Assembly: GCA_049696635.1 (NCBI GenBank)
Contig: JBAVUF010000341.1
Coordinates: forward strand, 1 to 56,499
Direction of reading: 5' to 3'
Length of the DNA stretch: 56,499 nt
From: Acidimicrobiales bacterium
GTDB taxonomy: Bacteria; Actinomycetota; Acidimicrobiia; Acidimicrobiales; Bog-793
A program made the position numbers and the translations under genes. Within the stretch, counting starts at the first letter, position 1; each line of letters begins with the position of its first letter. Of the stretch, positions 1 through 18,863 are shown in pieces. A model generated the notes under the pieces. It was not told where the DNA came from and did not search any database. It was given only the letters and a program-made list of their open reading frames with translations.

Positions 1-383
1 CCGCAGATGCGCCGTCGGTCGTGCGGGTTGGCGGGCGTCCCCTCGTACGAGTTGATCCCAGTCGTCCCGAAGGCGATCTCGTGCAGAGCCGTCTTGCCGA
101 CGATCGACGCGCCGGCGCGACGCAGGATCGCCACCACTTGAGCATCCGCATCGGCGGGCGGCGCTTGGTCGAACGCCGCGCAACCTGCCTTCGTCGGAAC
201 TCCGGCGACGTCGATGAGGTCTTTGACGGCGACCGGAACGCCGGCGAGAAACCCGCCGTCGCCGGTGAACTTCGGATCGAGGAACTGGGTGTACGCACCG
301 CCTTCGGCGACTGGACGTCGCAGCTCCAACGCGCGCCGGAGCGCCTCTTTCGGGTCGCGCCGCGCGTTGGTAAGCGAGATCAA
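1..383 (-). CDS. Amidase-signature family amidase, N-terminal part (gene runs off the left window edge)
   Basis: Absent from the ORF track because it is edge-truncated. Manual minus-strand translation gives ISLTNARRDPKEALRRALELRRPVAEGGAYTQFLDPKFTGDGGFLAGVPVAVKDLIDVAGVPTKAGCAAFD...GKTALHEIAFGTTGINSYEGTPANPHDRRRICG, the GxPxxVKD and GKTxxxExA blocks of AS amidases. Candidate TTG start at 383-381 overlaps the TGA of the upstream gene (TTGA). The exact start is uncertain. Confidence 0.7.
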   Translation of the reverse strand, partial: MISLTNARRDPKEALRRALELRRPVAEGGAYTQFLDPKFTGDGGFLAGVPVAVKDLIDVAGVPTKAGCAAFDQAPPADADAQVVAILRRAGASIVGKTALHEIAFGTTGINSYEGTPANPHDRRRIC

Positions 384-1213
384 CCGAGCAGACGCTGTTC
401 GAGTGCTTCGAGCCGCGCGCCGATCTGCGCGACGCGGTCCGAGCTCATCTCGACTCCGAACGACTGGGCGGCCGCGCCGACCCTCTCGGCTCCGGAAGCC
501 TCATCGGGTTGGGGAGTCGCGTCGGGAGGCGCGAGAAACGATCGGACGTCGATCCGGTACTGGAGCGCGAGGGCTGCGCCGGTGTGTCGATCGGACAGCT
601 CGGCGCGAAAGGCGTTTCCGACACGCAAGCCGCCGATCGCGGGAACCGTTCCGCACAGCACGACGAACGATTGCGCTCGCGACCTCCACGGAATCGCGTC
701 GAGGATATCGCCAGGCGACAAGAGCGCTTCCGTCGACCCGTCCTGGTACAAGTCGCCGTCGCCGATCCAGCTCCGCAGCCGCAGGTTGTCCCAATGATCG
801 ACAACGTCGCTGAGCTCCCACGCACTCTCCGCCAGCACTTTGTGACACATCGCTTTCGATAGCGCGACGTCAATCCGCTCGGCGGCGCGATCGGTGTGGT
901 CCGAGGCGACGGTGACGTAGACCTCGCCTCCCGCGACGAGGAGGGCGACTTCCGCCTCGCCCGAGGTCTCTTCCGACGCGGTGACGAGACTGTCGCTTTG
1001 GACCAATAGCGCGGGCGAGAGCGGGTAGAAGGTCGGCACGGCCGCTGGAGGCTCGATGCCGTGCTCGGCAAGCTCGCGGATGTGGGCGAGGACCTCTGCC
1101 TGGTCGCGCCCGGTGTACCCGGCGACGATAAGCACTTCCGGCTCCAAAAAGACGTCGGTGCCCGACGGTTCGAGTTTGAAGCGCAGGCGCGCCGTTGCCG
1201 CGGACCCGCTCAT
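380..1213 (-). CDS. DUF2848 domain protein with about 50-aa C-terminal extension
   Basis: 277-aa ORF. Blocks LIVAGYTGRD, VASDHTDR and DHWDNLRLRSW match my recollection of the DUF2848 family. It is co-directional with and abuts the downstream amidase. Confidence 0.65.
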   Translation of the reverse strand: MSGSAATARLRFKLEPSGTDVFLEPEVLIVAGYTGRDQAEVLAHIRELAEHGIEPPAAVPTFYPLSPALLVQSDSLVTASEETSGEAEVALLVAGGEVYVTVASDHTDRAAERIDVALSKAMCHKVLAESAWELSDVVDHWDNLRLRSWIGDGDLYQDGSTEALLSPGDILDAIPWRSRAQSFVVLCGTVPAIGGLRVGNAFRAELSDRHTGAALALQYRIDVRSFLAPPDATPQPDEASGAERVGAAAQSFGVEMSSDRVAQIGARLEALEQRLLG

Positions 1214-1340: not shown

Positions 1341-1352
1341 GTAGTATACTAC
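1341..1352. promoter_or_regulatory. Perfect 12-bp AT-rich palindrome GTAGTATACTAC in divergent intergenic region (putative operator)
   Basis: Read directly. It lies between the DUF2848/amidase genes (minus) and the HCHL/CoA-transferase genes (plus) and stands out against the GC-rich flanks. It shares the core TAGTATACT with the site at 4746-4771. Confidence 0.5.
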
Positions 1353-1477: not shown

Positions 1478-2296
1478 ATGTCCAGCTACAAGACCGTCAA
1501 GATCGAGCGTGAAAACGGCATCTCCTTCGTCGTGCTGAATCGCCCGGAAAAAAAGAACGCGATGAACCCGACGATGCACTACGAGATGCTCGAGGTGTGG
1601 GACGAGCTCGAATTCGACGAGGAAACCCGAGTCGTCGTGCTCACCGGCGAAGGCGAAAGCTGGTGCGCGGGGCAGGATCTGAAAGAGTCGTTCCTCGAAA
1701 CCGCCAACAACCCGTTGGAGCTGCGGCGCTCTACTTGGGCCGCGTCCGAGTGGAGATGGCGCCGGCTCCATTACTTCCCGAAGCCGACGATCGCGATGGT
1801 GAACGGCTACTGCTTCGGCGGCGGCTTCACCCAGCTCGTCGCCTGCGATTTCGCCATCGCCGCGGAGGAGGCGACCTTCGGGCTCAGCGAGGTGAACTGG
1901 GGCTCGTTCCCGGCCGGTCTCGTCAGCCGCGTCCTCGCCGAAGTGCTGGGGATGCGCGACGCGCTCTACTACATCATGACGGGAGAGACCTTCGACGGTC
2001 GCACGGCCGAGAAGATCCGCCTCGTCAACGAGGCGGTGCCGCTTTCGGATCTCCGAAAGGCAACCGTGACCCTCGCCGAAAAGCTGATGCGACTCAACCC
2101 GCACACGCTGCGCGCCTGCAAAGAGGTGTACAAGCACGTGAAGGACATGGACTACGAGGACGCCGAGGATTACATGTGGGCGAAGCTCGACATGTTGTCG
2201 GTTCTCGATCCGGGCGGCCGCCAGCGTGGGATCAGACAATTCGTCGAGGACAAGAGTTACCGACCGGGATTCGAGTCGTACAAGCACGATGAATAG
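1478..2296 (+). CDS. Crotonase-superfamily hydroxycinnamoyl-CoA hydratase-lyase (HCHL/Ech)-like enzyme
   Basis: It aligns along its full length with my recollection of Pseudomonas fluorescens HCHL: VVLNRPEKKNAM, KPTIAMVNGYCFGGGF, ATFGLSEVNWG, YYIMTGETF, EDYMWAKLD and the C-terminal KSYRPGFESYK. ATG 1478 (MSSYKTVKIE) fits the HCHL N-terminus. TTG 1466 is an alternative start. Confidence 0.85.
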   Translation: MSSYKTVKIERENGISFVVLNRPEKKNAMNPTMHYEMLEVWDELEFDEETRVVVLTGEGESWCAGQDLKESFLETANNPLELRRSTWAASEWRWRRLHYFPKPTIAMVNGYCFGGGFTQLVACDFAIAAEEATFGLSEVNWGSFPAGLVSRVLAEVLGMRDALYYIMTGETFDGRTAEKIRLVNEAVPLSDLRKATVTLAEKLMRLNPHTLRACKEVYKHVKDMDYEDAEDYMWAKLDMLSVLDPGGRQRGIRQFVEDKSYRPGFESYKHDE

Positions 2297-3500
2297 CGAG
2301 CAGTCGACGTCGCTGCTCGAGGGTTACACCGCGCTCGACCTGTCGGGGAATGAGGGGCAGTTCACCGGACGCCTCCTTTCCGACCTCGGGATGCGCGTCA
2401 TCAAGGTCGAGCCGCCAAGTGGGGATGTCGTCCGCAGCATCGGGCCGTTCAAGGATGATCTCGTCGACCGCGAGGCAAGCCTTCGCTTCGCATTTTTGAA
2501 CGGCGGCAAAGAGAGCATCACGCTCAACTTGGAGGATGTCGACGGCCGGGCGATGCTTCTCGATCTCGCCGCCCACGTCGACGTGTTAATCGAGAGCTTC
2601 ACCCCCGGATACCTCGACGATCTCGGCGTCGGTTTTCGCCGCCTACACGAACGTAACCGTCAGCTCGTCGTCGTCTCCATCACTCCGTTCGGACAGAACG
2701 GCCCGCACGCGAACTATCTGGCGACCGACATCGTCGGTGTGGCGATGGGCGGGATCATGTTCATCTCCGGAGATCCGAGCCTTCCGCCGGTCCGTCCCCC
2801 CGAGACGCAGTCGTTCTATTACGCCTCGATCTACGCGGCCTACGCGGTGTTGCTGGCGCTCTTCACGCGTGGCGAGGACGGCGACGGGCAATACATCGAT
2901 GTCTCGATCCAAGAGAGCGTCGCCTCACAAGAACACATGATCCGCGAAGCGGCATTCGACGGCGTTCAGATCACACGCAACGGCAGCCAGCACAAGCACA
3001 CGTCGCCGGCGAACATCTTTCCGTGCACCGACGGCTACGTCTATCTGTTCATCCTCGGCGCGCGTGACTGGGAGCGTCTGCTCGAGCTGTGGACCGATCA
3101 TCCGATCGAGCTAGACGCCCCGGAGCTGAAGGCACCGGGACGTCGCCGCGCCAAAGCGGCAATGATCAACCCGCTCGTCGAACAGTTCACCTCGCGTTAT
3201 TCCAAGCGTGAGCTGATGGGCTATCTGCAAGGAAACGGGATCCCGTGCCTGCCGGTCAATTCGCCGCGCGACTTCCTCGAAGAAGAGCAGGTCCGCGTCC
3301 GGGAGTTCTTCGGCGACGTGGAAAGCGCCTCCATCGGCCGATACCAGGCGCCACGGTTCCCAGCACTTTTCGACGGGCAGCGTCCGCCCGTCGCCGGCCC
3401 TCCACCGCGGCTCGGAGCCGACGGCGCGGCAATCTACCACGAATGGCTCGGCCTCGACGCCGAGGAGCTCGAGCTGCTCGCGGCGAGAGGCGCCGTCTAG
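2289..3500 (+). CDS. Family III CoA-transferase (CaiB/BaiF type), subunit/paralog 1
   Basis: MNSEQSTSLLEGYTALDLSGNEGQFTGRLLSDLGMRVIKVEPPSGD is the typical family III N-terminus. ATG 2289 overlaps the upstream stop (ATGAATAG). The longer track ORF from 2226 overlaps the HCHL-like gene. Confidence 0.85.
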   Translation: MNSEQSTSLLEGYTALDLSGNEGQFTGRLLSDLGMRVIKVEPPSGDVVRSIGPFKDDLVDREASLRFAFLNGGKESITLNLEDVDGRAMLLDLAAHVDVLIESFTPGYLDDLGVGFRRLHERNRQLVVVSITPFGQNGPHANYLATDIVGVAMGGIMFISGDPSLPPVRPPETQSFYYASIYAAYAVLLALFTRGEDGDGQYIDVSIQESVASQEHMIREAAFDGVQITRNGSQHKHTSPANIFPCTDGYVYLFILGARDWERLLELWTDHPIELDAPELKAPGRRRAKAAMINPLVEQFTSRYSKRELMGYLQGNGIPCLPVNSPRDFLEEEQVRVREFFGDVESASIGRYQAPRFPALFDGQRPPVAGPPPRLGADGAAIYHEWLGLDAEELELLAARGAV

Positions 3501-3502
3501 AA

Positions 3503-4702
3503 ATGGCGAGCTTCCTCTCCGGCATCCGCGTCGTCAGCCTGTCGACGGGCATCGCCGGCCCGAACGCGGCGCGCGGACTCGCCGTATTCGGTGCCGAGGT
3601 GTTCAAAGTCGAGTCGCGTGCCGGTGGGCTCGACGCGTTCCGCTCCTACGGCGACAACCCCGAAGCATCCCCGCGCTTCATCGAGGTGAACCTAAACACC
3701 CGATCGCTGACGCTCAACCTGAAGAACCCACAAGGGATCACGCTCTTCAAGGAGCTCGTCGCGAAGTCCGACGTCGTGATGGACAACTTCAGACCGCAGG
3801 TGCTCCCCCGCCTCGGTCTCGGACCCGACGACCTCCTCGCGATCAATCCGCGGGTGATCGTCGTGCGCATGCCCGGACTCGGCTCGCAAGGGCCGCTCAG
3901 CGCGTACGGCACGTGGGGTCCGACGCTCACCGCGTACTCCGGGCTCACCTATCTCTGGAATCATCCGGGCCAGGAGCGCCCGATCGGCTCACAAGGTGTC
4001 TACCCGGACTACCTCACAGGAGCAGTCGTGCCGGCGATCGTCGTTGCCGCCTTGTTGCGCCGCCGCCGCACCGGCAAGGGGGTGGCGATCGACGTCGCCC
4101 AGATGGACCTCGCCGCCTACACGCTCGGGACGACCTTCCTCGACGCCAACGTCAACGGTCGCGACCCACAGCCGATCGGCAACACCTCACCGCACATGGA
4201 GCCGCACAACAGCTTCCCGTGCCTCGGAGACGATCGTTGGTGCGTGATCGCCGTCGAAAACGACGCGCAATGGGCGGCGCTCTGCGCGGTGATCGGCGAA
4301 GAGGGGCTCGCCTCGGACGAACGATTCGCGACGCTGAGGGCGCGAAAGGCAAATCGCGACCAGCTCTTCGAGATCATCGCGAGTTGGACTCGAAACCACG
4401 AGGCCGCTTCGGTGATGGAACAGATGCAGCACGCCGGCGTCCCGGCCGGTGTCGTGCAGGGAGGCAGTGACCTCGCCGTGGACGAGCAGCTCGAGGCGCG
4501 CGGCTTCATCGAGATCGCCGATCACCCGATCCTCGGAAAGATGCCGATGGCTGGGCTGCCGATGCACTTCAGCGCCGGCCGCCACGAGGCGTTGAAAAGT
4601 CCTCCCCCGCTCGGGTCGGACAACGAATACGCGATCACCGAGATCCTCGGCCACAGCGCGGAGGACCTGAAGCGCTGGGAAGAAGAAGAGGTCGTCTACT
4701 AG
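3503..4702 (+). CDS. Family III CoA-transferase (CaiB/BaiF type), subunit/paralog 2
   Basis: MASFLSGIRVVSLSTGIAGPNAARGLAVFGAEVFKVES is a typical family III N-terminus. ATG 3503 lies 2 nt after the previous stop. The 5' part of track ORF 3245 is an Arg-rich out-of-context extension. Confidence 0.85.
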   Translation: MASFLSGIRVVSLSTGIAGPNAARGLAVFGAEVFKVESRAGGLDAFRSYGDNPEASPRFIEVNLNTRSLTLNLKNPQGITLFKELVAKSDVVMDNFRPQVLPRLGLGPDDLLAINPRVIVVRMPGLGSQGPLSAYGTWGPTLTAYSGLTYLWNHPGQERPIGSQGVYPDYLTGAVVPAIVVAALLRRRRTGKGVAIDVAQMDLAAYTLGTTFLDANVNGRDPQPIGNTSPHMEPHNSFPCLGDDRWCVIAVENDAQWAALCAVIGEEGLASDERFATLRARKANRDQLFEIIASWTRNHEAASVMEQMQHAGVPAGVVQGGSDLAVDEQLEARGFIEIADHPILGKMPMAGLPMHFSAGRHEALKSPPPLGSDNEYAITEILGHSAEDLKRWEEEEVVY

Positions 4703-4745: not shown

Positions 4746-4771
4746 TAGTATTCTAGTATACTTGTATGCTA
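4746..4771. promoter_or_regulatory. 26-bp imperfect AT-rich palindrome TAGTATTCTAGTATACTTGTATGCTA centred on AGTATACT (putative operator/-10 region)
   Basis: Read directly: 10 of 13 symmetric positions pair, and the core AGTATACT (4755-4762) is a perfect palindrome. It lies at the 5' end of the ABC-importer operon and overlaps the first candidate ATG (4766). Confidence 0.5.
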
Positions 4772-5665
4772 CGGTTCGCGGACATGACGGCCTCCGTCGT
4801 CGCGTCCCCGTCGCGACGGCTTGCCCCAGCGCGTGAGTTGTCTCAGGCTTCTGCCGTGAGCGACGCATTCCTCGGCCCGGTCCTGCAGGTTCGCAACCTC
4901 TGCATCCGCTACACCGGCCACGACAACGGCCGGCCCTTCGAGGCCGTAAAGAACGTTTCCTTCGACGTCGGCCGTCATCAACTCGTCGCCGTCGTCGGTC
5001 CGAGCGGCTGTGGTAAGTCGACGCTCCTCGCCGCGATCGCCGGCCTGATCCCCTACCACCGCGGCGAGATCCTCTGTGAGAACGCGCGGGTGACGAAGCC
5101 GGGCAAGGACCGAGCCGTCGTGTTCCAGCACGCTGCGCTGTTGCCGTGGCTCACGGTGCGCAAGAACGTCGCCTTCGGGATCCGCCAACGCGGTGCCGAC
5201 AAGGCGACCGCGCTGCGCCGCGCCGACGAGATGCTCGAGCTCGTGCGCCTGACGCAGTTCGCGAACAACTACCCGTATCAGCTCTCCGGCGGCATGCAGC
5301 AACGGGTCAACCTGGCCCGCGCCCTCGCGACCGACCCGGAGATCATGCTGTTGGACGAGCCGTTCGCCGCGTTGGACGCGCAGCACCGCGAGCTCTTGCA
5401 GAACGAGTTGATGCGGATCTGGGACTCGACCGACAAGGCGGGCATCTTCATCACCCACCAGATCGAAGAAGCGATCTTCGTCGCCGACGTCGTCGTCGTG
5501 TTATCGAGCGGACCCGGGTCGGTCGTCAAAGAGGTCCTCGAGATCGACCTGCCACGTCCGCGCGACCGGAGCGTGACCGAGGGGGAGAAATTCGGCGCCT
5601 TCGCACGAAAGATCCGCAGTGTGCTCGAACAAAGCTGGTCGGACCAGTTCGAAGTCGACAAGTGA
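4766..5665 (+). CDS. ABC transporter ATP-binding protein, NitT/TauT (nitrate/sulfonate/taurine) type
   Basis: Walker A GPSGCGKST, signature LSGGMQQR and Walker B MLLDEPF are present. An alternative start is ATG 4784, because the palindrome covers 4766. Confidence 0.85.
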   Translation: MLRFADMTASVVASPSRRLAPARELSQASAVSDAFLGPVLQVRNLCIRYTGHDNGRPFEAVKNVSFDVGRHQLVAVVGPSGCGKSTLLAAIAGLIPYHRGEILCENARVTKPGKDRAVVFQHAALLPWLTVRKNVAFGIRQRGADKATALRRADEMLELVRLTQFANNYPYQLSGGMQQRVNLARALATDPEIMLLDEPFAALDAQHRELLQNELMRIWDSTDKAGIFITHQIEEAIFVADVVVVLSSGPGSVVKEVLEIDLPRPRDRSVTEGEKFGAFARKIRSVLEQSWSDQFEVDK

Positions 5666-5685
5666 AAGACAAAGGGGGGCATCGA

Positions 5686-6756
5686 ATGCAAGGTTCGAAC
5701 GAATGGAGCACGAAGCATATAAGGCTTTTCAAACCCGTCGTAATCGTGGCGGTCGCGGCGATCGGCCTCGTCTCTGTGTCAGTAGGCACGGCAGCCGCGG
5801 CCAATTCGCACAAGTCGCTCGTCACGGTGAACGTCGGCGTCCAGGCGCCCGTGCCGGTATTCGCCGCCTGGTGGTTCATGCAGGAGAACCCGGGGATCTG
5901 CAAGCCGTTCGGTATTAAGCCGAACTTCGAGACGGTCACTCCGGTGAGCGGACCTCCGGCGCTGCTCAGCGGATCGATCCCGGTTCAGGTCGAGGCCAAC
6001 GGCTCGTACTTCGAAGAAGCGGCGAAAGCCGCCGATTCGGTGATCCTGCTCGGCGGCTACGGACCGCTCGCCACCTACTTCTGGGGAACGAAGAGCATCA
6101 CGAGCCCGAAGGACTTCGCCGGCACGACCGTCGCCGCGACGACACCTGGCGGTGCTTCCGACCTCCTCGCCCGGTTGGCGATCAAGCTTGCCGGGCTCAA
6201 GCCCTCGCAGGTGAAGATCGACTACGTCGGGAGCGCGCAGGCGATCATCGCGCTCACCGAAACCGGCCAGACCTCCGGCTTCAGCGACCCGGCACCGCTT
6301 CCCCCGCAGGCGACTGCGGCAGGGCTGCACCCGGTCCTCAACCTCACCAACTCGACGTCGTCGCTTCCGCTCGACACGCTCGCGGTGGTGGCAGACGGTC
6401 CGTACTACCGGTCGCACAAAACCGCCGTCCACGCGTTGCTGCAGTGCGTCGCCCTGGCCGACCACGACTCCGTCGTCCACAAACAAGGCGTGATCACCTC
6501 GATCGAGGAGGTGCTCGGTTACCCGTTGTCCCTCGCGGCGCTCGCCTGGACCTACAACCACGCGACGTGGAACATCTTCCCGTTCACGAAGCCGCTCGCA
6601 CTGACAGCGATCGCGGCGGTTCGCTCGGGCGGACAGGCCGCAGCCGTCGCCGGATACAAGTACAACTCGGTCGACGTGGCGATGAATGCGCTCGTCGGTA
6701 TCAAGTACGCGCTGCAAACACCACCCGGCATCGTGAAGGCCTCGACATCGTCGTAA
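5686..6756 (+). CDS. Secreted NMT1/SsuA-like ABC substrate-binding protein
   Basis: ATG 5686 is preceded by AAAGGGGGG. The signal-like N-terminus is KHIRLFKPVVIVAVAAIGLVSVSVGTAAAA. The position between the ATPase and the permease fits. The 5' half of track ORF 5146 overlaps the ATPase gene and is discarded. Confidence 0.75.
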   Translation: MQGSNEWSTKHIRLFKPVVIVAVAAIGLVSVSVGTAAAANSHKSLVTVNVGVQAPVPVFAAWWFMQENPGICKPFGIKPNFETVTPVSGPPALLSGSIPVQVEANGSYFEEAAKAADSVILLGGYGPLATYFWGTKSITSPKDFAGTTVAATTPGGASDLLARLAIKLAGLKPSQVKIDYVGSAQAIIALTETGQTSGFSDPAPLPPQATAAGLHPVLNLTNSTSSLPLDTLAVVADGPYYRSHKTAVHALLQCVALADHDSVVHKQGVITSIEEVLGYPLSLAALAWTYNHATWNIFPFTKPLALTAIAAVRSGGQAAAVAGYKYNSVDVAMNALVGIKYALQTPPGIVKASTSS

Positions 6757-6822
6757 GGAGAAGGCCGTTTAGGTTTGAGCGCGAGCGACGCGGAGCCGTG
6801 AGGCATCGGTAGGGAGCACTTC

Positions 6823-7719
6823 TTGGGAATCTCGACACGGATGCACAATTGGCTCAACAGTTCCGGCAGCGTCGCCTCGCGCGAACCTGAGGTCGGCGTC
6901 GACAGCCCGATCGTCGACGCCGACACCGACTACACAAAGCCGACGCGTGCCCGCAGGTTGTGGCGACGGTGGGAGCGCTTGATCCTCGGCACGAGCGCCA
7001 TCGCTGTCGTCCTCGGGGCTTGGCAGCTTTCCGCCGCAGAGCACTGGGTGAACACCGAATTCACGAGCGAACCATCGGCGGTCGCGACCTCGCTCGTGAA
7101 CTACTTCCAACACGGAACTGGCTGGGGCGACCTCTGGGTGACGAGCCAGGAATTCTTGATCGGATTCGCGCTCTCCCTCGCGATCGGGATCCCGCTCGGC
7201 GTCCTGATGGGCTGGTACAAGAAGATCGACGAGCTTTTGAACCCGATGGTGATCTTCCTCAACAACATCCCGAGGATTGCGCTCGCTCCACTGTTTGTCA
7301 TCTGGTTCGGCATCGGCCTCGAGTCGAAGGTGGCAATCGTCCTTTGTGTCGCGACGATTCCTTTGATCTTCAACGCCCGCGCCGGTGTGGTAACGACCGA
7401 GCGCACGCTTGTCCAGATGGCGCGCTCGTATGGAACGCCGAACATCGCCCTTTTGTGGAAGGTCGTCCTCCCGGGCTCGGTGCCGACGATCGTCTCCGGC
7501 GTCCGCATCGCGGTCGGCCAGGGCTTGCAGGCGGTCGTCCTGGCCGAGTTCATCGCGGCCGAGCACGGCCTCGGATTCACGCTGTTCTCGGCGGCGGAGA
7601 CGCTCGACACGGCCCGGATGTTCGACGCCGTGACGGTCATCGCCGTCGCCGGCCTCATCCTCACCGCGCTGGCGACCCGGCTCGAGCGCTATTTCGACCG
7701 CTGGCGCGTCGCAGATTGA
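6823..7719 (+). CDS. ABC transporter permease (SsuC/TauC-like)
   Basis: The protein is multi-TM with the conserved block NNIPRIALAPLFVIWFGIGLESK. TTG 6823 is preceded by AGGGAG at a 6-nt spacing. Confidence 0.8.
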   Translation: MGISTRMHNWLNSSGSVASREPEVGVDSPIVDADTDYTKPTRARRLWRRWERLILGTSAIAVVLGAWQLSAAEHWVNTEFTSEPSAVATSLVNYFQHGTGWGDLWVTSQEFLIGFALSLAIGIPLGVLMGWYKKIDELLNPMVIFLNNIPRIALAPLFVIWFGIGLESKVAIVLCVATIPLIFNARAGVVTTERTLVQMARSYGTPNIALLWKVVLPGSVPTIVSGVRIAVGQGLQAVVLAEFIAAEHGLGFTLFSAAETLDTARMFDAVTVIAVAGLILTALATRLERYFDRWRVAD

Positions 7720-7813
7720 CGGCGTGAGCGGGCGAACGCGGCGCGTTCGTCGGCGGACGATCGCGCCACAACGAACGCAACCGCTTCTCTAGAACGCGCA
7801 GGAAGGACCTTCG

Positions 7814-8851: not shown

Positions 8852-8873
8852 CGAAGAAAGGACTCACGCTGCG

Positions 8874-10364: not shown

Positions 10365-10407
10365 ACATCGTGTCGCACGGCACCTGCACCGGCCCACCGG
10401 ACGATTG

Positions 10408-11772: not shown

Positions 11773-11791
11773 GCGGCTCGCCGAGCGAGCG

Positions 11792-11814
11792 AATTGGTAT
11801 GTTACATTTCAGTT
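11792..11814. promoter_or_regulatory. AT-rich imperfect palindrome AATTGGTATGTTACATTTCAGTT, core ATGTTACAT (putative operator)
   Basis: Read directly. 8 of 11 symmetric pairs match, and the 9-bp core is perfect. It sits in the short gap between the CapA-like and isochorismatase-like genes. The core is nearly identical to the site at 17255-17267. Confidence 0.45.
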
Positions 11815-11847
11815 CAGGAGCAGGGTCTCCAGAGATTGGAGCGGCGG

Positions 11848-12561
11848 GTGACGAAGCGAATCTGGGACGACCTCATCACCGACCAGGATCGTGAGGTTTA
11901 CGGCAGCGGGGTCTTCGGCGGCGGCGTCGGCGTCGGCAAGCGCCCCGCGGTGCTCGTCATCGACGTCTTGAACAAGAGCATCGGCGACGAGCCGCTGCCG
12001 ATCCTCGAGGCGATGAAGCGCTTCGGCAAACCCTGTTGCGGCGAGTATGGCTGGGCGACGATCCCGAAGATCCAGGCGGTCCTCAAGGCCGCGCACGACG
12101 CCGGGTTGCCCGTCTTCTACACCACCCCGCAAGACCCAGAGGAGCGGCCGCCCGATACCTTCCGCCGCTTCGACGAAAAGATGCCGAACTGGTACGACTA
12201 CGCGGGGAATCGCGCCGGATACGCCTTCGCCGACGAGATCGCGCCGATCCCTTCCGATCAGATCTTCCACAAGCCGACGGCGAGCTCGTTCTATTTCACC
12301 GACTTCGAGGATCAGCTCCACAAAATGGACGTCGACACGCTCATCGTCACGGGTTGCTCGACGAGCGGTTGCGTGCGTGCCTCGGTCGTCGACGCGCATG
12401 CCCGCGGCTTCAAGGTGAACGTCGTCGAGGACGCAGTGTTCGATCGTGGCCAGGCGACGCACGCGATGAATCTCTTCGACATGCACGCGAAGTACGCCGA
12501 CGTCATCGACGCCGACGAGGCCGTCCGCCGGATCGGAGCGGTGGCCGCCGCGTCGTCATGA
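11848..12561 (+). CDS. Isochorismatase-family cysteine hydrolase (N-carbamoylsarcosine amidase / maleamate amidase-like)
   Basis: YGSGVFGGGVGVGKRPAVLVIDV and LIVTGCSTSGCVRAS (catalytic Cys block) are present. GTG 11848 is preceded by GGAG at a 6-nt spacing. Track start TTG 11794 would put the palindrome inside the CDS. Confidence 0.75.
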   Translation: MTKRIWDDLITDQDREVYGSGVFGGGVGVGKRPAVLVIDVLNKSIGDEPLPILEAMKRFGKPCCGEYGWATIPKIQAVLKAAHDAGLPVFYTTPQDPEERPPDTFRRFDEKMPNWYDYAGNRAGYAFADEIAPIPSDQIFHKPTASSFYFTDFEDQLHKMDVDTLIVTGCSTSGCVRASVVDAHARGFKVNVVEDAVFDRGQATHAMNLFDMHAKYADVIDADEAVRRIGAVAAASS

Positions 12562-13358
12562 CATCTTCGGGTGACACCGAGCCACGCGCCGTCGAGCCGA
12601 CAACGTGCCGGCGCTACGTCGGCCGCAACGTCATCGTCACCGGCGCGGGTGCCGGCATCGGCAAGGCGACCGCGGAGCGTATCCTCGCCGAGGGCGGAAC
12701 GGTCTTCATCACCGACCGGAACAAAAAAGCTCTCGACGGCGCCGTCGAAGAACTCTCCGATCTCGGCAGAGTCCATTCCTCGGTGAAGGACGTCTCCTCA
12801 GAAGACGACTGGGAACGCTGCATCGCAGAAGCGCGTGAGGCGTTCTCGACTCTCGATCTGCTCGTCAACAACGCCGGGTTCAGTCACGTCGGAAAGGTCA
12901 CCGAGTACCCGGCGGAGGATTGGAAGCTGCTGCACGACACACAGCTGTTCGGAACGTTCCTCGGCATCAAGCACGCAATCCCCTTTTTGCGCGAAGGGGG
13001 CGGCGGCGCGATCGTCAACGTCGCCTCGACCATGGGGCTGATGGGCTTTCCGAGTATTCCCGCCTATTCGGCGGCGAAGGGTGGCGTCATCGCCCTCACG
13101 AGGCAGGTCGGGCTCGATTTCGCGCCCGACCGCATCCGGGTGAACTGCGTCTGCCCCGGGCCGACACGAACCGAGCGGTTGCGCGGCATCGTCGATTCGG
13201 GCGACGTCGACGAGAACTACCTGATCGGCAACGTCCCGCTCGGCCGCTGGGCGCACCCGAGTGAGGTCGCGGCGGTGATCGCGTTCCTCGGCAGCGACGA
13301 CGCGTCGTTCGTGACCGGGGCGGCTCTTCCGGTCGACGGGGGGCAGACGTCACACTGA
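12558..13358 (+). CDS. Short-chain dehydrogenase/reductase (SDR)
   Basis: TGAGAGIG cofactor motif, NNAG and YSAAK catalytic motif are present, with the C-terminal PVDGGQT. ATG 12558 overlaps the upstream TGA (ATGA). Confidence 0.85.
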   Translation: MTSSGDTEPRAVEPTTCRRYVGRNVIVTGAGAGIGKATAERILAEGGTVFITDRNKKALDGAVEELSDLGRVHSSVKDVSSEDDWERCIAEAREAFSTLDLLVNNAGFSHVGKVTEYPAEDWKLLHDTQLFGTFLGIKHAIPFLREGGGGAIVNVASTMGLMGFPSIPAYSAAKGGVIALTRQVGLDFAPDRIRVNCVCPGPTRTERLRGIVDSGDVDENYLIGNVPLGRWAHPSEVAAVIAFLGSDDASFVTGAALPVDGGQTSH

Positions 13359-14185
13359 TCCGCTTCGGACACGTCGCCAATCCCTTCTCCGCGCCTCTCA
13401 CGCGCGCGATCGACGAGGGGCACTTCACCGCGGCCGGAGTCGATTTGGCCGTGACCATGTTCCGAAACGGTTCGGAAGTCGCGGACTTGATTGACCGTGG
13501 CGAGCTCGATGCCGGCCTCGGCGGTCATCTGCAGACGCTCGCCGCCGCGCTCGCCTGGTCGGATCAGTCGTTCTTCGCCGCGGTCGGATTCGAAGAGGCG
13601 CCCGACCATCTCCCCGTCGCGATGGTCGTCGGCGCCCGCGCATCGACGGGAATCGCGAGGGGCGCGACGGTCGCGATGAGTACACGCGCCGCAATCAGCG
13701 ACTTGCAGCTGCGCATCTTCGCCGCCGCGAAAGGGATCGACTATTCATCGCTCAGGATCGTGACGATGCCCTTCGCGGAGATGCATGCGGCGCTCGCGAA
13801 CGGAGAGGTCGACGCGGCGTCGGTGCCCGACCCGTTCGCCACCCAGATCGAGCGCTCGGGCGAAGGGACGATCGTCGACCGTGGCACGCTCAGCAAGAGG
13901 ATGCCCGCCGGCGACCGCGTGATGATCACCGGGCTCGTCTCAAAGAAGCGATGGATCGAGGATCATCGCGATCTCGCCGCTCGAATCGCCGAAGTCGTCG
14001 GCCAGGTCATCACCGATCGTCCTTCGGTGGCCGGAGCCGGCGAGAGCGTCGACGCACGGGTCCACAAGCCGACCTTCGACGTTCGCCTGCGCCGCGACGA
14101 CCTGCAGCTCGCCTTTGACCTCGCGGCCGACTTCGGCGTCGTTCCCGGCCACCTGGACGCGGAGAACCTGATCGCGATCCCCTGA
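13355..14185 (+). CDS. Cytosolic NMT1/SsuA-like (periplasmic-binding-protein fold) protein with apparent non-canonical start
   Basis: The in-frame translation from 13355 reads L-IRFGHVANPFSAPLTRAIDEGHFTAAGVDLAVTMFRNGSEVADLIDRGELDAGLGG, the conserved N-terminal strand-helix-strand of this family. No ATG/GTG/TTG exists in frame before TTG 13445. CTG 13355-57 overlaps the SDR stop TGA 13356-58. There is no signal peptide. Confidence 0.55.
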   Translation: MIRFGHVANPFSAPLTRAIDEGHFTAAGVDLAVTMFRNGSEVADLIDRGELDAGLGGHLQTLAAALAWSDQSFFAAVGFEEAPDHLPVAMVVGARASTGIARGATVAMSTRAAISDLQLRIFAAAKGIDYSSLRIVTMPFAEMHAALANGEVDAASVPDPFATQIERSGEGTIVDRGTLSKRMPAGDRVMITGLVSKKRWIEDHRDLAARIAEVVGQVITDRPSVAGAGESVDARVHKPTFDVRLRRDDLQLAFDLAADFGVVPGHLDAENLIAIP

Positions 14186-14227: not shown

Positions 14228-14257
14228 GTAGCGCCGCTCCGGTCGGACCAGCGCTAC
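14228..14257. terminator. Inverted repeat GTAGCGC-N16-GCGCTAC between convergent genes (possible bidirectional terminator)
   Basis: Read directly. The 7-bp arms sit at 14228-14234 and 14251-14257, and the right arm overlaps the hydantoinase stop codon. There is no clear U-tract. Confidence 0.3.
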
Positions 14258-15663
14258 ACCCGGGCTAAAGCCCGCGACTCGGCGAAGAGGTCGATGGCGC
14301 TCGACGGCGGACGGCGCAGGTACTCGCCGAAGCCTTCGGTGCCGACGATCTCACCGTCTTTCATCACCGTCTCTCCGCGCACGAGCGTCTGCACGGACCA
14401 CCCCTTCAGTCGTTCACCCTCCCACGGCGAGAAGTCCGCCCGCGACTGCAGGTAGCCCGCGTCGACGACCATCTCTTTTTCGAGATCGACGATCGCGAGA
14501 TCGGCATCGCTTCCAACCTCGATCGTCCCCTTGCGGGGATAGAGGTTAAAGATGCGCGCCGTGTTGTAGGAAGAGATCTCCGCGATCCGCTGCAGGCTGA
14601 CGCCACGTCGGTGGTAACCCTCGGTGAGGAGTATCGAGAGCATCGTTCCGACACCAGGGAAGGCGGAGCCTGCCTTCCACACACCGCCCTCCTTGTCGGC
14701 ACGAAAGCGCGCCGAGTGGTCGCAGCCGACGGTGTCGACGAGGCCCGCCTTCACCGCGTCCCACATTGCCTCGACGTCCTTCGCCTTGCGCACGGGTGGG
14801 TTGACCTTCGCCAGCAACCCGCAGGGTGAGTCGATCGTGAGCGAGAGGTAGTGCGGTGTCGTCTCGATGAATACGGGTGACCCGCTGCTGCGGACGCTGG
14901 CGAACTCTCGCGCGGACTCCTCGCAGCTCATGTGTACGAAGTACACGGGACAATCGGTCGAGCGCGACATGAACGCCGCGGTCATCATCGCCGTGGCCTC
15001 CGCGACAGGCGGGCGCGCCGCGTAATGCGCCGCGAGGCCCTCGAGACCTTGTTTCTTCACTTCCTCCTCGGCCCGCCAGATCATCTCGATGTTCTCGGTG
15101 TGGACGTTGACGATCGCGCCCGGGATCCCGGCGATCGTCTCTAACAATTCGTAAAAGAGCCCCTCGTCGGTCGTGCCGACGCCGCGGGCCGTGCCCTCGT
15201 TGCCCTTGTAGCTCATGAAGAGCTTGAACGACGAAACGCCGAGATCGTTGATGTAGTGAGGAATCTTCGCGATGTGCTGAGACGAGAAGATCCCGAGGTG
15301 GATGCCCATGTCGACGTACGCGAGACGGTCGATGTGATCGAGGAACTCGTCGTAATCGGCCCTGTAGGAGTCGGGCTTCAAGATGTAGTTGAGAATCGAG
15401 GTCACACCGCCGATCGCCGCGGAGCGGGTCTCGCTGCGTACGTCGGTGAGCGGCTGACCGACGAAGCCGATGTGCATGTGCGGATCGATGAGGCCAGGGA
15501 AGATGAAGCGGCCCTTGGCATCGATTTCCGAGCTCGCACTGACCGACTCGTCGGGCTCCAAGAGAGCGGCGATCTTTCCCTCGTGGATGGCGAGGTTCAC
15601 CTTGCGTAAACCCTGAGCCGGAATGACGGCCGTGCCGTTCCTGATCACCGTGTCGAAACTCAT
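14254..15663 (-). CDS. Cyclic amidohydrolase (D-hydantoinase/dihydropyrimidinase family)
   Basis: PGLIDPHMH metal-binding motif and FKLFMSYKG (carboxylated-Lys block) are present, together with NVHTEN and GCDHS, in a 469-aa protein. Confidence 0.85.
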   Translation of the reverse strand: MSFDTVIRNGTAVIPAQGLRKVNLAIHEGKIAALLEPDESVSASSEIDAKGRFIFPGLIDPHMHIGFVGQPLTDVRSETRSAAIGGVTSILNYILKPDSYRADYDEFLDHIDRLAYVDMGIHLGIFSSQHIAKIPHYINDLGVSSFKLFMSYKGNEGTARGVGTTDEGLFYELLETIAGIPGAIVNVHTENIEMIWRAEEEVKKQGLEGLAAHYAARPPVAEATAMMTAAFMSRSTDCPVYFVHMSCEESAREFASVRSSGSPVFIETTPHYLSLTIDSPCGLLAKVNPPVRKAKDVEAMWDAVKAGLVDTVGCDHSARFRADKEGGVWKAGSAFPGVGTMLSILLTEGYHRRGVSLQRIAEISSYNTARIFNLYPRKGTIEVGSDADLAIVDLEKEMVVDAGYLQSRADFSPWEGERLKGWSVQTLVRGETVMKDGEIVGTEGFGEYLRRPPSSAIDLFAESRALARV

Positions 15664-15744: not shown

Positions 15745-16794
15745 TCAGTAGCCGTATTTCGCGGCGACTTGTTCCGCCCTTTCGAGATCGCCGCTCAGCT
15801 CTGGCCGCGTCGAGAGCTCGGCGAACGCGTCTTTAGCCATCTCGAGCTGGGAGATCTTCGCTGGATCGATGAAGGAATCGATCGCCCCGATGGCGACCGC
15901 CTCCTTCAGGTACTGCTCGAGCCCGGTCGGCAGCCCGTCGATCGGAAACGGCATCATCTCGGCCTGAACCGACGATCCGAACTGCGCCATGCGGGCGCGC
16001 TCGTCGGGATCCGGACTGTGGCGACGAAGGCGTGCTTCGATCGCTGCGGTCAGCTCGATGTTCTCGGGCTGTTTGCGGATGAACCAGTACGCCCGGATCA
16101 TCCCTTTGATGAAGGCCTTCAGATCATCGCCTCGCTCATCGATCGCCTTTTCGGTCGCGGCGATCACCCGATCGGGACGACCGTCGGGGTAGTGGGCGGC
16201 GACCACGAAGATCTGCTCGTACCCGTCGTCGAGCAGTCCGGGAAGGTCGAGGCCGTCGGCGAACACCGCGTCGACACGCCCCTCTCTCAGCGCGAACGGT
16301 CCGCGTCGAGTGTCGATCCCGGTCACCCATTCGATGTCTTTCTTCGGATCGATGCCCTCTTGCACCAGCCAGTAGGTGAGCATCGTGACCAAGATGTCAT
16401 CGGGGTCGATGATGCCGACTTTCTTTCCGACGAGATCCCTCAAGTTCGACAGACCAGCGCGCCCGACGACGAAAAAGGCCATCTGATTGCGCCAGCCGGC
16501 GATGATCCGCAGCCCTTTGCCCTGTTGCTGCAAGAAGGCGACGGTCGACGGCTTCACGTCCATCGTCACGTCGATGCCGCGCTCTTTCATCGTCTGCCAG
16601 AGCGTTTGCTTTTCGAACATGAACGGCGCGTGGCTGTCCGGGACGATCTCGTAGGCCTCGAGGCCGTCCTCGTCACGCAGCCCCTCGTCGTAGAAGTAGT
16701 TGAGGTCGTCGGCGATCGTCGGCGGGACGAGGTGCAGGACGTGATAGCAGGAGGGTCCGATGCGAAGCGGCCTGCGGCCACGGCCGGGAGTCAC
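15745..16794 (-). CDS. Cytosolic NMT1/SsuA-like (binding-protein fold) protein
   Basis: GTG 16794 overlaps the cupin stop (GTGA). The N-terminus is VTPGRGRRPLRIGPSCYHVLHLVPPTIADDLNYFYDEGL, followed by RIIAGWRN and GKKVGIID blocks typical of the family. There is no hydrophobic signal segment. The longer track ORF (to 17118) overlaps the cupin gene. Confidence 0.65.
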   Translation of the reverse strand: MTPGRGRRPLRIGPSCYHVLHLVPPTIADDLNYFYDEGLRDEDGLEAYEIVPDSHAPFMFEKQTLWQTMKERGIDVTMDVKPSTVAFLQQQGKGLRIIAGWRNQMAFFVVGRAGLSNLRDLVGKKVGIIDPDDILVTMLTYWLVQEGIDPKKDIEWVTGIDTRRGPFALREGRVDAVFADGLDLPGLLDDGYEQIFVVAAHYPDGRPDRVIAATEKAIDERGDDLKAFIKGMIRAYWFIRKQPENIELTAAIEARLRRHSPDPDERARMAQFGSSVQAEMMPFPIDGLPTGLEQYLKEAVAIGAIDSFIDPAKISQLEMAKDAFAELSTRPELSGDLERAEQVAAKYGY

Positions 16795-17201
16795 GCCCCG
16801 CCCTGGACCTTTTTGATGTTCGTGCTGAACGCCTCGATCGTGTCGGCCGCCTCCTTCGCCGGGTTGAACTCGATGTTCTCGAAGTCCTCGATCGCGTAGA
16901 GCTTGTGGCCGGGCGGGGCGTAGTAGAGGTCGCCGCCGTTGATCGTGACCTCGCGGCCGTCCGCCATCCGCAACAGCGCTTTTCCCTTCACGAGGTAGCC
17001 CCAGTGTGGACACTGGCAGAGGTCTTCGGGTAACCCTTCCCAAGCTGCCTCGCCGCCCGGCGGAAACCCCCCGGGTACTCGCTCGAAGGCGAGCGCGTAC
17101 CCCTCCCATTGCGCCCATTGCGCCTGGTAGGCGCCCATGCTGACGACGGGAAGGTCATCCTTGGCGATCGTCAAGCCGTCCGGCGAAAAGAGTTCGGCCA
17201 T
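16791..17201 (-). CDS. Cupin-domain protein
   Basis: CPHWGYLVKGKALLRMADGREVTINGGDLYYAPPGH has a cupin_2-like beta-barrel pattern. ATG 17201 is preceded by GAGGAG at a 9-nt spacing. Confidence 0.65.
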   Translation of the reverse strand: MAELFSPDGLTIAKDDLPVVSMGAYQAQWAQWEGYALAFERVPGGFPPGGEAAWEGLPEDLCQCPHWGYLVKGKALLRMADGREVTINGGDLYYAPPGHKLYAIEDFENIEFNPAKEAADTIEAFSTNIKKVQGGA

Positions 17202-17339: not shown

Positions 17340-18863
17340 ATGACCGCCACCGAAACATCCTTCGCCCGGGATTTCGTCGCTGACCAGTCCTTCAAGATGC
17401 TGATCGGCGGTGAGTTCGCCGGCGCGGACGAGCATCACGGCGGAGTAACCGAGACAGTGGATCCGTCGACCGGCCTCGTCCTCACCCGCGTCCCCGAAGC
17501 CGACAGCGGCGACGTGCACCGCGCCGTGGAGGCGGCAAGCGCGGCGCAACCGGCGTGGCGAGAACTCGGACTGTGGGGTCGAGCGGCGTGCTTCGCACGC
17601 TTCTCGAAGCTGTTGAAAGAGAACCGCGAGCGGCTCGCGATGCTTGACGCGGTCGACTGCGGAAACCCGATCCGTGCGATGCGCATCGACGTCGACCTGT
17701 GCGAGGAGTATCTGCGCGCCTATCCCCCGATGGCGTGGGGCTTGCACGGTCGCGTGCACGAGATGAACCGCGGCGGGCTTCACTACACGCTCTCCCGCCC
17801 GTACGGCGTGACCGGTCGGATCCTCGCCTTCAACCACCCGCTGTTGTTCGCGGTGTCGCGCGCCCTTCCCGCACTCATCGTCGGCAACACCCTTGTCATG
17901 AAGCCCGCTCCACAGACGCCGCTCTCCGCGCTCGCGCTGGGAGAGCTCTTCGCAGAGGCGTTCCCCCCTGGTGTCGTCAACATCTTGAGCGGAGGCGCGG
18001 CCGTCGGCGACGCGATCGTTCGCCATCCCGAGATCAAGCGGATCTCTTTCACGGGAAGCGTTCAAACGGGTCTCGCTATCCAGCGATCGGCTGCCGAGAG
18101 CGGTCATGTAAAGCACGTTTCACTCGAGCTCGGGGGGAAGAACGCGATGGTCGTCTTCCCCGACGTCGACGTCCAAACAGCCGTCGAAGGCGCGGTGTTC
18201 GGTATGAACCTCGGCGTATGCCAGGGCCAGTCATGCGGCTCGAACTCGCGCGTTCTTGTGCATCGGAGTATCCACGATGAGTTCGTCGAAGCGCTCGGGG
18301 CTCGCCTCGATCGCTTCCGAGTCGCGACGGCGTACGAGGACAACTCGGAGATGGGGCCGCTCGTCACGCAGGCGCACTTCGACCGCGTCGCGGGCTATCT
18401 CGCGCGGGGCAAGGAGGAAGGCGCGCGCCTCGTAACGGGGGGCGGGCGTCCGACGGACGTTCCGGACGGGGGATTTTTCATGCGCCCCGCCGCATTCGAC
18501 GGCGTCCAACAGGGGATGACGATCGCGCGCGAGGAAATCTTCGGCCCAGTCGTCAGCGTGCTCGCCTGGAGCGAATTTGACGAGATGATCGCCGCCGCAA
18601 ACGCCGTCGAACTCGGCCTGACGGCGAGCGTCTGGACGGACGACTTGAATCTCGCCCACAAGACCGCGGAACTACTCGATGCCGGATACGTGTGGGTCAA
18701 CGACAGCACGGTCCACTACGTCGGCACGCCTTTCGGTGGCACGAAGGACAGTGGAACGGGCCGCGAGGAATCAGAAGAGGAGCTCCTCAGCTTTCTCGAG
18801 CTAAAAGCGGTGAATACCAAGCTCTCGAATCCTGGCGTCGCAATGGAAAGGCACGGCTGGTAG
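17340..18863 (+). CDS. NAD(P)-dependent aldehyde dehydrogenase
   Basis: SLELGGKNAMVVFPD and the Cys block GQSCGSNSR are present, together with EEIFGPV, in a 507-aa protein. The RBS AGGGAGAG lies upstream. Confidence 0.9.
   Translation: MTATETSFARDFVADQSFKMLIGGEFAGADEHHGGVTETVDPSTGLVLTRVPEADSGDVHRAVEAASAAQPAWRELGLWGRAACFARFSKLLKENRERLAMLDAVDCGNPIRAMRIDVDLCEEYLRAYPPMAWGLHGRVHEMNRGGLHYTLSRPYGVTGRILAFNHPLLFAVSRALPALIVGNTLVMKPAPQTPLSALALGELFAEAFPPGVVNILSGGAAVGDAIVRHPEIKRISFTGSVQTGLAIQRSAAESGHVKHVSLELGGKNAMVVFPDVDVQTAVEGAVFGMNLGVCQGQSCGSNSRVLVHRSIHDEFVEALGARLDRFRVATAYEDNSEMGPLVTQAHFDRVAGYLARGKEEGARLVTGGGRPTDVPDGGFFMRPAAFDGVQQGMTIAREEIFGPVVSVLAWSEFDEMIAAANAVELGLTASVWTDDLNLAHKTAELLDAGYVWVNDSTVHYVGTPFGGTKDSGTGREESEEELLSFLELKAVNTKLSNPGVAMERHGW

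Follow-up and report, generated by a model that had tools for sequence, protein, structure and literature searches.

A 56.5-kb contig (JBAVUF010000341.1 of assembly GCA_049696635.1; 56,499 nucleotides, referred to here as the window) of an Acidimicrobiales bacterium carries, at positions 1478 to 4702 of the forward strand, a gene for a crotonase of the hydroxycinnamoyl-CoA hydratase-lyase (HCHL) family followed by two genes for family-III CoA-transferases, CoAT1 and CoAT2. The contig, analysed whole, belongs to a 2.55-Mb metagenome-assembled genome (MAG) which is 84.5% complete and whose nearest public relatives are Acidimicrobiaceae MAGs from Danish soil (lyase identity 94-97%). We interpret the three genes as a single operon which, without ATP, would shorten the side chain of a non-phenolic and possibly N-heterocyclic acid in three steps (CoA transfer, hydration, retro-aldol cleavage), a reading to which we give a probability of about 0.55. 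More generally, the combination of an HCHL-type lyase with a transferase resembling BbsEF (succinyl-CoA:(R)-benzylsuccinate CoA-transferase) appears to be a widespread and uncharacterised module of uncultured soil bacteria, of which the window would represent one retuned branch.

HCHL is a textbook enzyme, used industrially, which converts feruloyl-CoA to vanillin. To our knowledge every known HCHL pathway is fed by an ATP-consuming ligase, as is also the case throughout the literature searched, and BbsEF-type transferases are known to us only from anaerobic degradation of hydrocarbons and phthalate; they are now seen in soil Actinomycetota. The locus and its many relatives would provide a second, undescribed way of feeding HCHL-type lyases, through a heteromeric or fused family-III CoA-transferase which could draw its CoA from the acyl-CoA that the lyase releases, with a saving of ATP. 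An earlier note on this DNA, made from the sequence alone, had remarked on the presence of transferases instead of a ligase as an unfamiliar combination. Indeed, no ligase gene lies beside the lyase in eight related loci, and the literature searched holds no description combining feruloyl-CoA hydratase with a family-III CoA-transferase, nor of this gene set; it does not mention DUF2848, the family of a conserved neighbouring gene. The pairing is therefore undescribed there but not peculiar to the window, as it recurs in several phyla.

Membership of the lyase in the HCHL family is clear. The ATG at 1478 is favoured over the TTG at 1466 as start codon because homologues begin with MSSYKT. The protein scores 391 bits against the NCBIfam HCHL profile NF006588 (cut-off 276) and covers profile positions 6-275 of 276. 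In a phmmer search of the PDB, its residues 4-269 align with residues 8-275 of HCHL from P. fluorescens (2J5I, 2VSS; E ~2e-95), with an identity of 54% (Foldseek) to ~58%. The alignment is interrupted by a one-residue insertion of HCHL in the loop at 84-85, where the offset between the two numberings moves from +4 to +5, and by one more gap in the C-terminal tail. The HCHL structures 2VSS and 2J5I are also the top Foldseek matches (TM-score 0.80-0.91) of an AlphaFold2 model of the lyase, whose predicted local distance difference test (pLDDT) is 74.9 and falls below 50 for residues 138-143. The protein thus shares its crotonase subfamily and fold with the enzymes known as HCHL, Ech or FCHL from P. 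fluorescens AN103 (2J5I/2VSS), P. putida (6L3O), a lignin-degrading consortium (6P5U) and Sphingobium SYK-6 (7XWC). The catalytic Glu143 of HCHL is retained as Glu138 (LSEINWG reads LSEVNWG), the GG motif of the oxyanion hole is kept, and Glu occupies the catalytic position in all 121 close homologues examined. Ordinary crotonase hydratases use two catalytic Glu residues and HCHL one; the lyase has the HCHL arrangement, with the single Glu138 and with Thr118 where ordinary hydratases carry the other Glu. The end-to-end alignment with HCHL and the conservation of the catalytic Glu proposed in the earlier note are thus borne out. This is the only HCHL-family gene in the MAG, and no HCHL-family match at E<=1e-70 was found in 400 other genomes of the same class.

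The substrate pocket differs from that of HCHL. In the phmmer alignment to 2J5I/2VSS, KEYF becomes KESF (HCHL Tyr75, lyase Ser71), DYLYAK becomes DYMWAK (Tyr239, Trp234) and GGGFS becomes GGGFT (Ser123, Thr118); these three substitutions, listed in the earlier note, are all confirmed, and its reference residues and register were right. Pro124, Arg225 and Met70 of HCHL are in addition replaced by Gln, His and Gln. In HCHL, Tyr75 and Tyr239 both bind the 4-hydroxyl group of the substrate. Docking of a Streptomyces enzyme placed Tyr248 of the neighbouring chain (equivalent to Tyr239) in hydrogen-bonding contact with the phenolic hydroxyl (PMC10487757). Tyr at positions 75 and 239 together is seen in none of the 120 database proteins closest to the lyase. 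With the lyase included, these proteins show at positions 75/123/143/239 the patterns S-T-E-W (22, including the lyase), F-T-E-A (36), Y-T-E-S (16), Y-T-E-A (15), F-T-E-G (14) and others. Since Thr is the most frequent residue at position 123 among close homologues, the change from Ser123 is uninformative.

Seven plasmid HCHLs (five in annotated loci, two in unannotated records) provided a reference for the two tyrosines. Five of them adjoin an AMP-binding, FerA-type or feruloyl-CoA-synthase gene together with a MarR or aldehyde dehydrogenase (ALDH) gene; of these classical partners, neither ligase nor MarR lies beside the window lyase. Tyr75 is kept in all seven, Tyr239 in only two (Rhizobium and Ralstonia), with Ser or Val in the rest, and Ser is found at position 75 in all 28 members of the S-T-E-W group. 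These comparisons suggest that Tyr239 is helpful yet dispensable and that Tyr75 is the better marker, lost in this lyase. The replacement of Pro124 by Gln seemed promising as a marker of transferase adjacency, Gln being present in the window clade, in L017/L036 and in L018 (L numbers designate loci), all transferase-flanked; it was rejected because P0039 (L096) carries Gln although the 8 kb around it contain no transferase, and P0122 (L097) has Pro with transferases nearby.

Phylogenetic analysis places the lyase within HCHL proper, in a well-supported clade distinct from that of the plasmid HCHLs. Trees inferred with FastTree (125 rows) and IQ-TREE (61 rows, LG+C20) agree; a set of representatives at 50% identity was too coarse to separate subclades. 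The clade of HCHL proper (SH-aLRT 99) splits into a group of 10 rows which includes all seven plasmid HCHLs (support 94) and a sister group of 37 rows, none with Tyr239 (support 97). The lyase lies within a 13-row subclade of the latter (support 96), in which 12 rows are S-T-E-W. Ser71, Gln119 (HCHL Pro124), His220 (Arg225) and Trp234 are invariant in the S-T-E-W group (n=28), unlike in both other groups, whereas Gln66 (Met70), Cys63, His34, Trp87 and Phe125 are common to the lyase group and the wider sister clade. Tandem HCHL-family paralogues, two or three per locus, occur in Acidiferrales, Binatia, Syntrophobacterales and Chloroflexota MAGs (L014, L019, L020, L021, L016, L098), with residues 75 and 239 varying between copies; one of these loci adjoins TctABC carboxylate transporters.

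The two transferases match Pfam CoA_transf_3 over their full length (284 bits for CoAT1, 322 for CoAT2), share 27% identity and are the only family-III transferases in the MAG. BbsEF (9FN0), likewise encoded by tandem genes, is the closest solved relative of both, and the subunits correspond one to one: CoAT1 best matches 9FN0_A (E 2e-47, against 8e-24 for 9FN0_B) and CoAT2 best matches 9FN0_B (2e-51, against 8e-23 for 9FN0_A). The catalytic Asp was located from the O. formigenes formyl-CoA transferase (Frc) sequence, with Asp169 in GDSNSG and Glu140 in YEN, and the positions were transferred by way of alignments with 10UH, a solved formyl-CoA transferase. CoAT2, like 9FN0_B, combines Asp at the Asp169 site with Gly in place of Glu140; at these two sites CoAT1 has Phe and Asp, and 9FN0_A Tyr and Asp. 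Asp169 is found in every full-length CoAT2 orthologue recovered, and the CoAT1 orthologues have Phe or Tyr. Without the nucleophile CoAT1 should be unable to act alone, which argues for an obligate heteromer. Prediction of the CoAT1-CoAT2 complex with both alignments gave a score of 0.96 in three runs (contact agreement of at least 96%, partner pLDDT of at least 92) and at best 0.00 in three controls. Of 80 solved complexes 58 attain this mark, as do 2 of 110 mismatched pairs; the score may only mirror likeness to solved family-III dimers. Natural fusions of the two proteins, described below, and the modelled complex both point indirectly to a heteromer. The two-subunit resemblance to BbsEF seen in the earlier note therefore holds, each subunit matching a different chain of 9FN0, with the catalytic Asp in one only.

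CoAT1 and CoAT2 are nevertheless BbsEF-like in architecture without being a benzylsuccinate enzyme. Their HMMER scores against BbsEF are moderate (165 and 179 bits), with the homodimeric formyl-CoA transferase close behind (145 and 166 bits). The bss and bbs genes (the glycyl-radical synthase genes bssABC, bbsG, bbsH, bbsCD and bbsAB) are all absent from the window and related loci. The host is an actinobacterial MAG from soil and not a known anaerobic toluene degrader, and the downstream enzyme is a lyase-type crotonase instead of a full beta-oxidation set. The carnitine system offers a precedent for a family-III CoA-transferase feeding a crotonase, although CaiB is a homodimer and CaiD only hydrates and dehydrates; the two transferases score 90 and 88 bits against the CaiB profile NF002914, far below its cut-off of 413. 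In the 3-hydroxypropionate bi-cycle, the two-subunit family-III transferase SmtAB feeds a C-C lyase, malyl-CoA lyase, and the CoA ester is recycled; malyl-CoA lyase has a fold other than that of crotonases.

The three genes are tightly arranged. The lyase stop codon (TAG, 2294-2296) overlaps the CoAT1 ATG at 2289 by 8 nucleotides, and 2 nucleotides separate the CoAT1 stop from the CoAT2 ATG, an arrangement which indicates a translationally coupled operon. The order ECH-CoAT1-CoAT2 is present in all eight related loci that reach downstream (L008-L013, L099 and L100; lyase identity 72-97%), although CoAT2 is truncated in L012. These loci come from Acidimicrobiaceae, an 'Actinomycetes' MAG, Solirubrobacteraceae, metagenome contigs and, according to the source annotation of the protein, Dehalococcoidia. 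No CoA ligase, MarR gene or vanillin-dehydrogenase-type context lies beside the lyase in the window or in these eight loci. That the genes are neighbours by chance, with the transferases serving another pathway, is highly improbable: the general caution that adjacency is not function is all that speaks for it, against overlapping or nearly abutting start and stop codons, a gene order kept across several classes, and HCHL-family genes at most 3.5 kb from fused transferases in all four loci examined. Two transferase genes are truncated, CoAT2 of L012 (12675 onward; 182 residues) and a CoAT1-like gene of L097 (12858-13439; 193 residues), which may reflect frameshifts or assembly errors.

Fused transferases extend the pairing beyond this synteny group. 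In L036 (9703-12123) both transferases form one reading frame of 806 residues, and in the near-identical L017 (5877-8287) they are two overlapping genes; both loci are from Acidobacteria MAGs. The fusion is matched at E<=1e-50 by 765 proteins, of which the best 120 are 765-855 residues long and cover 96-100% of the query. In the residue analysis of fused proteins (n=121), CoAT1 invariably fits best the N-terminal half (45-53% identity), and the C-terminal half is always closest to CoAT2 (44-52%). All 121 C-terminal domains carry Gly in place of Glu140 together with the Asp of the Asp169 site. In the N-terminal domains Glu140 is replaced by Asp in all 121 proteins, and the Asp169 site is occupied by Tyr or Phe in 118. 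These single-chain CaiB-like proteins thus show the same catalytic-site asymmetry as CoAT1 and CoAT2. Hundreds of full-length forms (~790-855 residues) are encoded by uncultured Acidobacteriota, Chloroflexota, Binatia and Deltaproteobacteria. An HCHL-family gene lies at most 3.5 kb from the fused transferase in all three contexts looked up, and an NMT1-like gene directly upstream in two of the three; acyl-CoA dehydrogenase genes also occur in these contexts. Unlike the window lyase, the lyases of two fused-transferase loci keep Tyr75; their residue 239 is Met, Ile or Ala. In the sister clade, the transferases of L017 and L036 are 1.2 kb from the lyase, with an acyl-CoA dehydrogenase gene between them, and L097 has two CoA_transf_3 genes 4 kb from its lyase. 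In its split or fused form, the HCHL and family-III transferase pairing is thus found in Acidobacteriota, in Chloroflexota and in one MAG of Binatia or Deltaproteobacteria type.

A set of partner genes accompanies the operon outside Acidimicrobiaceae, as seen in five loci (L008, L009, L012, L013 and L100) in which the partners recur in shuffled order at 41-74% identity. All five include a hydantoinase-like amidohydrolase, an isochorismatase-family amidase and two NMT1-like proteins, while a short-chain dehydrogenase/reductase (SDR), an ALDH and a divergent DUF2848 gene occur in four (not L008). The amidohydrolase gene usually lies right after CoAT2 (directly so in L009, L013 and L100). Orthologues of the window amidase, 67-72% identical to it, lie in all five loci, and orthologues of its ALDH, 69-74% identical, in L009, L012, L013 and L100. 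The nearest solved relatives of the amidase are N-carbamoylsarcosine amidase and a maleamate amidohydrolase (3OT4/3UAO). The DUF2848 gene is adjacent and divergent in L009-L013, L026 and L100, and an NMT1-like gene immediately adjoins the transferase, whether fused or split, in L008, L099, L102 and L103. UbiD genes occur in three loci (L008, L009, L100), one of which, L100, also has UbiX; a GntR/FCD regulator gene and a Liv-type ABC system are found in some related loci, and an aldehyde:ferredoxin oxidoreductase gene near one sister-clade lyase.

Family membership, the residue changes, the asymmetry of the subunits, the fusions and the synteny are thus shown. These observations can be accommodated in the following scheme, in which we infer that the crotonase acts as a lyase, what donates the CoA, that the CoA is recycled, and the class of substrate. 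CoAT1 and CoAT2 would form an interlocked BbsEF-type heterodimer, with the catalytic Asp169 supplied by CoAT2 only, which would shift CoA from a small acyl-CoA (succinyl- or acetyl-CoA) to the substrate acid, either alpha,beta-unsaturated (acrylate-type) or beta-hydroxy. The HCHL-type crotonase would hydrate the enoyl-CoA and, by means of its single Glu138, carry out the retro-aldol cleavage to an aldehyde and a short acyl-CoA. The latter would recharge the transferase, with no need for ATP, and the aldehyde would be oxidised by the ALDH of the cluster. More speculatively, the (hetero)aromatic acid so formed might undergo decarboxylation by UbiD/UbiX, and an N-containing ring might be opened by the amidohydrolase together with the amidase.

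The crotonase could alternatively act solely as a hydratase, in the role of BbsH, and contribute with the transferase and SDRs to a route resembling beta-oxidation which involves no retro-aldol step. The Bbs pathway does include an enoyl-CoA hydratase and an SDR-type hydroxyacyl-CoA dehydrogenase; the transferase is BbsEF-like, and the conserved part of the cluster includes one or two SDR genes. We consider this improbable, since the cluster has no conserved thiolase or acyl-CoA dehydrogenase, the conserved ALDH is what would be expected if an aldehyde arises, and the lyase has the single-Glu arrangement and is far nearer to HCHL (E ~1e-95) than to any hydratase (E<=1e-42).

As regards the substrate, the changes in the pocket (Ser71, Trp234, Gln119 and His220) and the conserved partners suggest that it is probably not ferulate or coumarate, and the substrate of the clade is probably a more polar acid, possibly N-heterocyclic. 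Several points weigh against this. The N-heterocycle idea is drawn from neighbouring genes only; the lyase model is of moderate quality (pLDDT 74.9); and the block with an ABC importer and LLM-class, TcuA-like and PGA_cap-like genes that follows the operon is confined to the closest relatives (L010, L011). A phenol could still form hydrogen bonds with Ser71 and Trp234, with or without an intervening water. Tyr239 is replaced by Ser or Val in four of the six examined plasmid HCHLs that adjoin an annotated CoA-ligase gene, and by Ala in 6P5U, the solved enoyl-CoA hydratase/aldolase from a lignin-degrading consortium, which we assume to be the vanillin-producing enzyme of a study of that consortium. 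In that study vanillin was made with an enzyme of 6P5U type (PMC6388921). Finally, fused-transferase loci carry lignin-type LigB, a LigXa-like Rieske oxygenase and Amidohydro_2 genes, so that an aromatic, even phenolic, substrate is possible.

These points would fit ordinary cleavage of a hydroxycinnamate (ferulate, coumarate or caffeate), with Ser71 and Trp234 binding the 4-hydroxyl and only the activation by a CoA-transferase being unusual. The lyase does exceed the curated HCHL cut-off and is named HCHL by all databases, and some related loci are flanked by Liv-type ABC systems, which serve aromatic acids. Yet Tyr75, present in all seven plasmid HCHLs and in the lyases of fused-transferase loci, is Ser in every S-T-E-W sequence, four residues of the pocket region are fixed differently in the lyase clade, and a cyclic amidohydrolase and a carbamoyl-type amidase are conserved instead of ring-cleavage, demethylase or MarR genes, which are absent from the window and related loci (ring-cleavage dioxygenase, vanillate demethylase and MarR among the window open reading frames scanned). 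Hydroxycinnamate cleavage consequently seems to us unlikely, though less so than a hydratase-only role. The earlier note had concluded from the altered tyrosines that the substrate is not a 4-hydroxycinnamoyl-CoA. This survives in part: Tyr239 is dispensable in relatives, Thr123 is common, and Ser and Trp are still hydrogen-bond donors, so that weight shifts to the loss of the plasmid-invariant Tyr75, the separate clade with invariant residues of its own and the amide/N-heterocycle gene context.

A more specific form of the proposed scheme, which we regard as tentative, is a self-recharging, ATP-free removal of the side chain in which the acyl-CoA released by the lyase is itself the donor for the transferase, in a clade retuned through Ser71, Gln119, His220 and Trp234 for a non-phenolic N-heterocyclic acid whose ring is then decarboxylated and opened. 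With an alkylidene- or arylidene-succinate as substrate the donor would be succinyl-CoA, and otherwise acetyl-CoA. CoA would then play a catalytic part, and the overall conversion would read acid + H2O -> aldehyde + acetate or succinate. If true, this catabolic pathway would be undescribed in any organism. Conversion of crotonobetainyl/carnitinyl-CoA to betaine aldehyde, with Trp as cation-pi partner, was considered and dropped: the best NCBIfam match of the ALDH is betaine-aldehyde dehydrogenase but at 406 bits against a cut-off of 669, and the reaction is at odds with the conserved genes for the amidohydrolase, the amidase and UbiD. Nor do the gene sets known for Rut-like, nicotinate, creatinine, ergothioneine, cyclic-imide or phthalate pathways cover all conserved partners.

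A large part of the database proteins that bear the name 'p-hydroxycinnamoyl-CoA hydratase/lyase' are without one or both of the phenol-binding tyrosines and occur outside lignin contexts; soil-metagenome counts of 'ferulate degradation' genes are for this reason probably too high. The lyase clade may also be a natural starting point for obtaining lyases that release non-phenolic or heteroaromatic aldehydes. The features of the operon and its surroundings are listed in Table 1.

Table 1. Features of the lyase-transferase operon and of neighbouring genes (positions in the window)
Feature	Position	Strand	Remarks
DUF2848 protein, divergent conserved neighbour	380..1213	-	Pfam PF11010, 220 bits
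TAGTATACT palindrome, candidate operator	1342..1350	.	in the 264 nucleotides that separate the lyase operon from the divergent DUF2848 gene
HCHL-family crotonase (hydratase/retro-aldol lyase type)	1478..2296	+	272 residues; ECH_1
Lyase Ser71 codon	1688-1690	+	HCHL Tyr75
Lyase Thr118 codon	1829-1831	+	HCHL Ser123
Lyase Gln119 codon	1832-1834	+	HCHL Pro124
Lyase Glu138 codon	1889-1891	+	catalytic HCHL Glu143
Lyase His220 codon	2135-2137	+	HCHL Arg225
Lyase Trp234 codon	2177-2179	+	HCHL Tyr239
CoAT1, family-III CoA-transferase subunit without catalytic Asp	2289..3500	+	403 residues; CoA_transf_3; BbsEF chain A-like
CoAT1 Asp147 codon	2727-2729	+	Frc Glu140 site
CoAT1 Phe176 codon	2814-2816	+	Asp169 site
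CoAT2, catalytic family-III CoA-transferase subunit	3503..4702	+	399 residues; CoA_transf_3; BbsEF chain B-like; Gly139 at Glu140 site
CoAT2 Asp169 codon	4007-4009	+	in GVYPDYL
TAGTATACT palindrome, second copy	4754..4762	.	after the CoAT2 stop (4702) and ahead of the ATG (4766) of the ABC-transporter operon
Isochorismatase-family amidase, conserved partner	11794..12561	+	Pfam
SDR oxidoreductase, conserved partner	12558..13358	+	profile matches, synteny
NMT1/THI5-like binding-protein-fold protein, conserved partner	13355..14185	+	profile matches, synteny
Hydantoinase/dihydropyrimidinase-like cyclic amidohydrolase	14254..15663	-	Pfam, NCBIfam
Second NMT1-like protein	15745..17118	-	profile match, synteny
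ALDH, candidate consumer of the lyase aldehyde	17340..18863	+	Pfam, 487 bits

The palindrome TAGTATACT occurs exactly twice in the 56.5 kb, each time shortly upstream of an operon start. No regulator gene adjoins either site; as mentioned above, a GntR/FCD gene is present in related loci. Beyond the DUF2848 gene, in the region 3-1213 of the reverse strand, an amidase-signature gene is cut by the contig end. Neither the DUF2848 protein nor the long NMT1-like protein has a sequence match in the PDB. In one Atlas cluster of DUF2848 proteins, 10% of members are also FAA_hydrolase, hinting at a fumarylacetoacetase-like fold. The second NMT1-like protein probably starts later than annotated, since its orthologues are ~345 residues long. 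UbiD is divergent, with a thioredoxin gene directly upstream, in L100 (5920-6546 and 20566 onward, with UbiX) and L008 (15070-16766), and the genome to which the window belongs has its sole UbiD on a different contig (C241).

Between CoAT2 and the amidase, a co-directional block (4766-13358) includes a NitT/TauT ABC importer and an LLM-class oxidoreductase, together with a flavoprotein which scores above the cut-off for TcuA (tricarballylate dehydrogenase; 442 against 369 bits) and a cytosolic PGA_cap protein whose sole NCBIfam match, the lasso-peptide Trp epimerase MslH, is below cut-off (296 against 700 bits). Elsewhere in the window there are three amidase-signature genes, another isochorismatase-like gene, a molybdenum hydroxylase and further ECH, SDR and LLM genes. 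The molybdenum hydroxylase (large and FAD subunits) is encoded with a thiolase-like gene on the reverse strand at 36421-41284, near CoxG, ECH, SDR, LLM, AMP-binding ligase and TetR genes, and this region has the appearance of a second catabolic cluster, of the kind that hydroxylates N-heterocycles.

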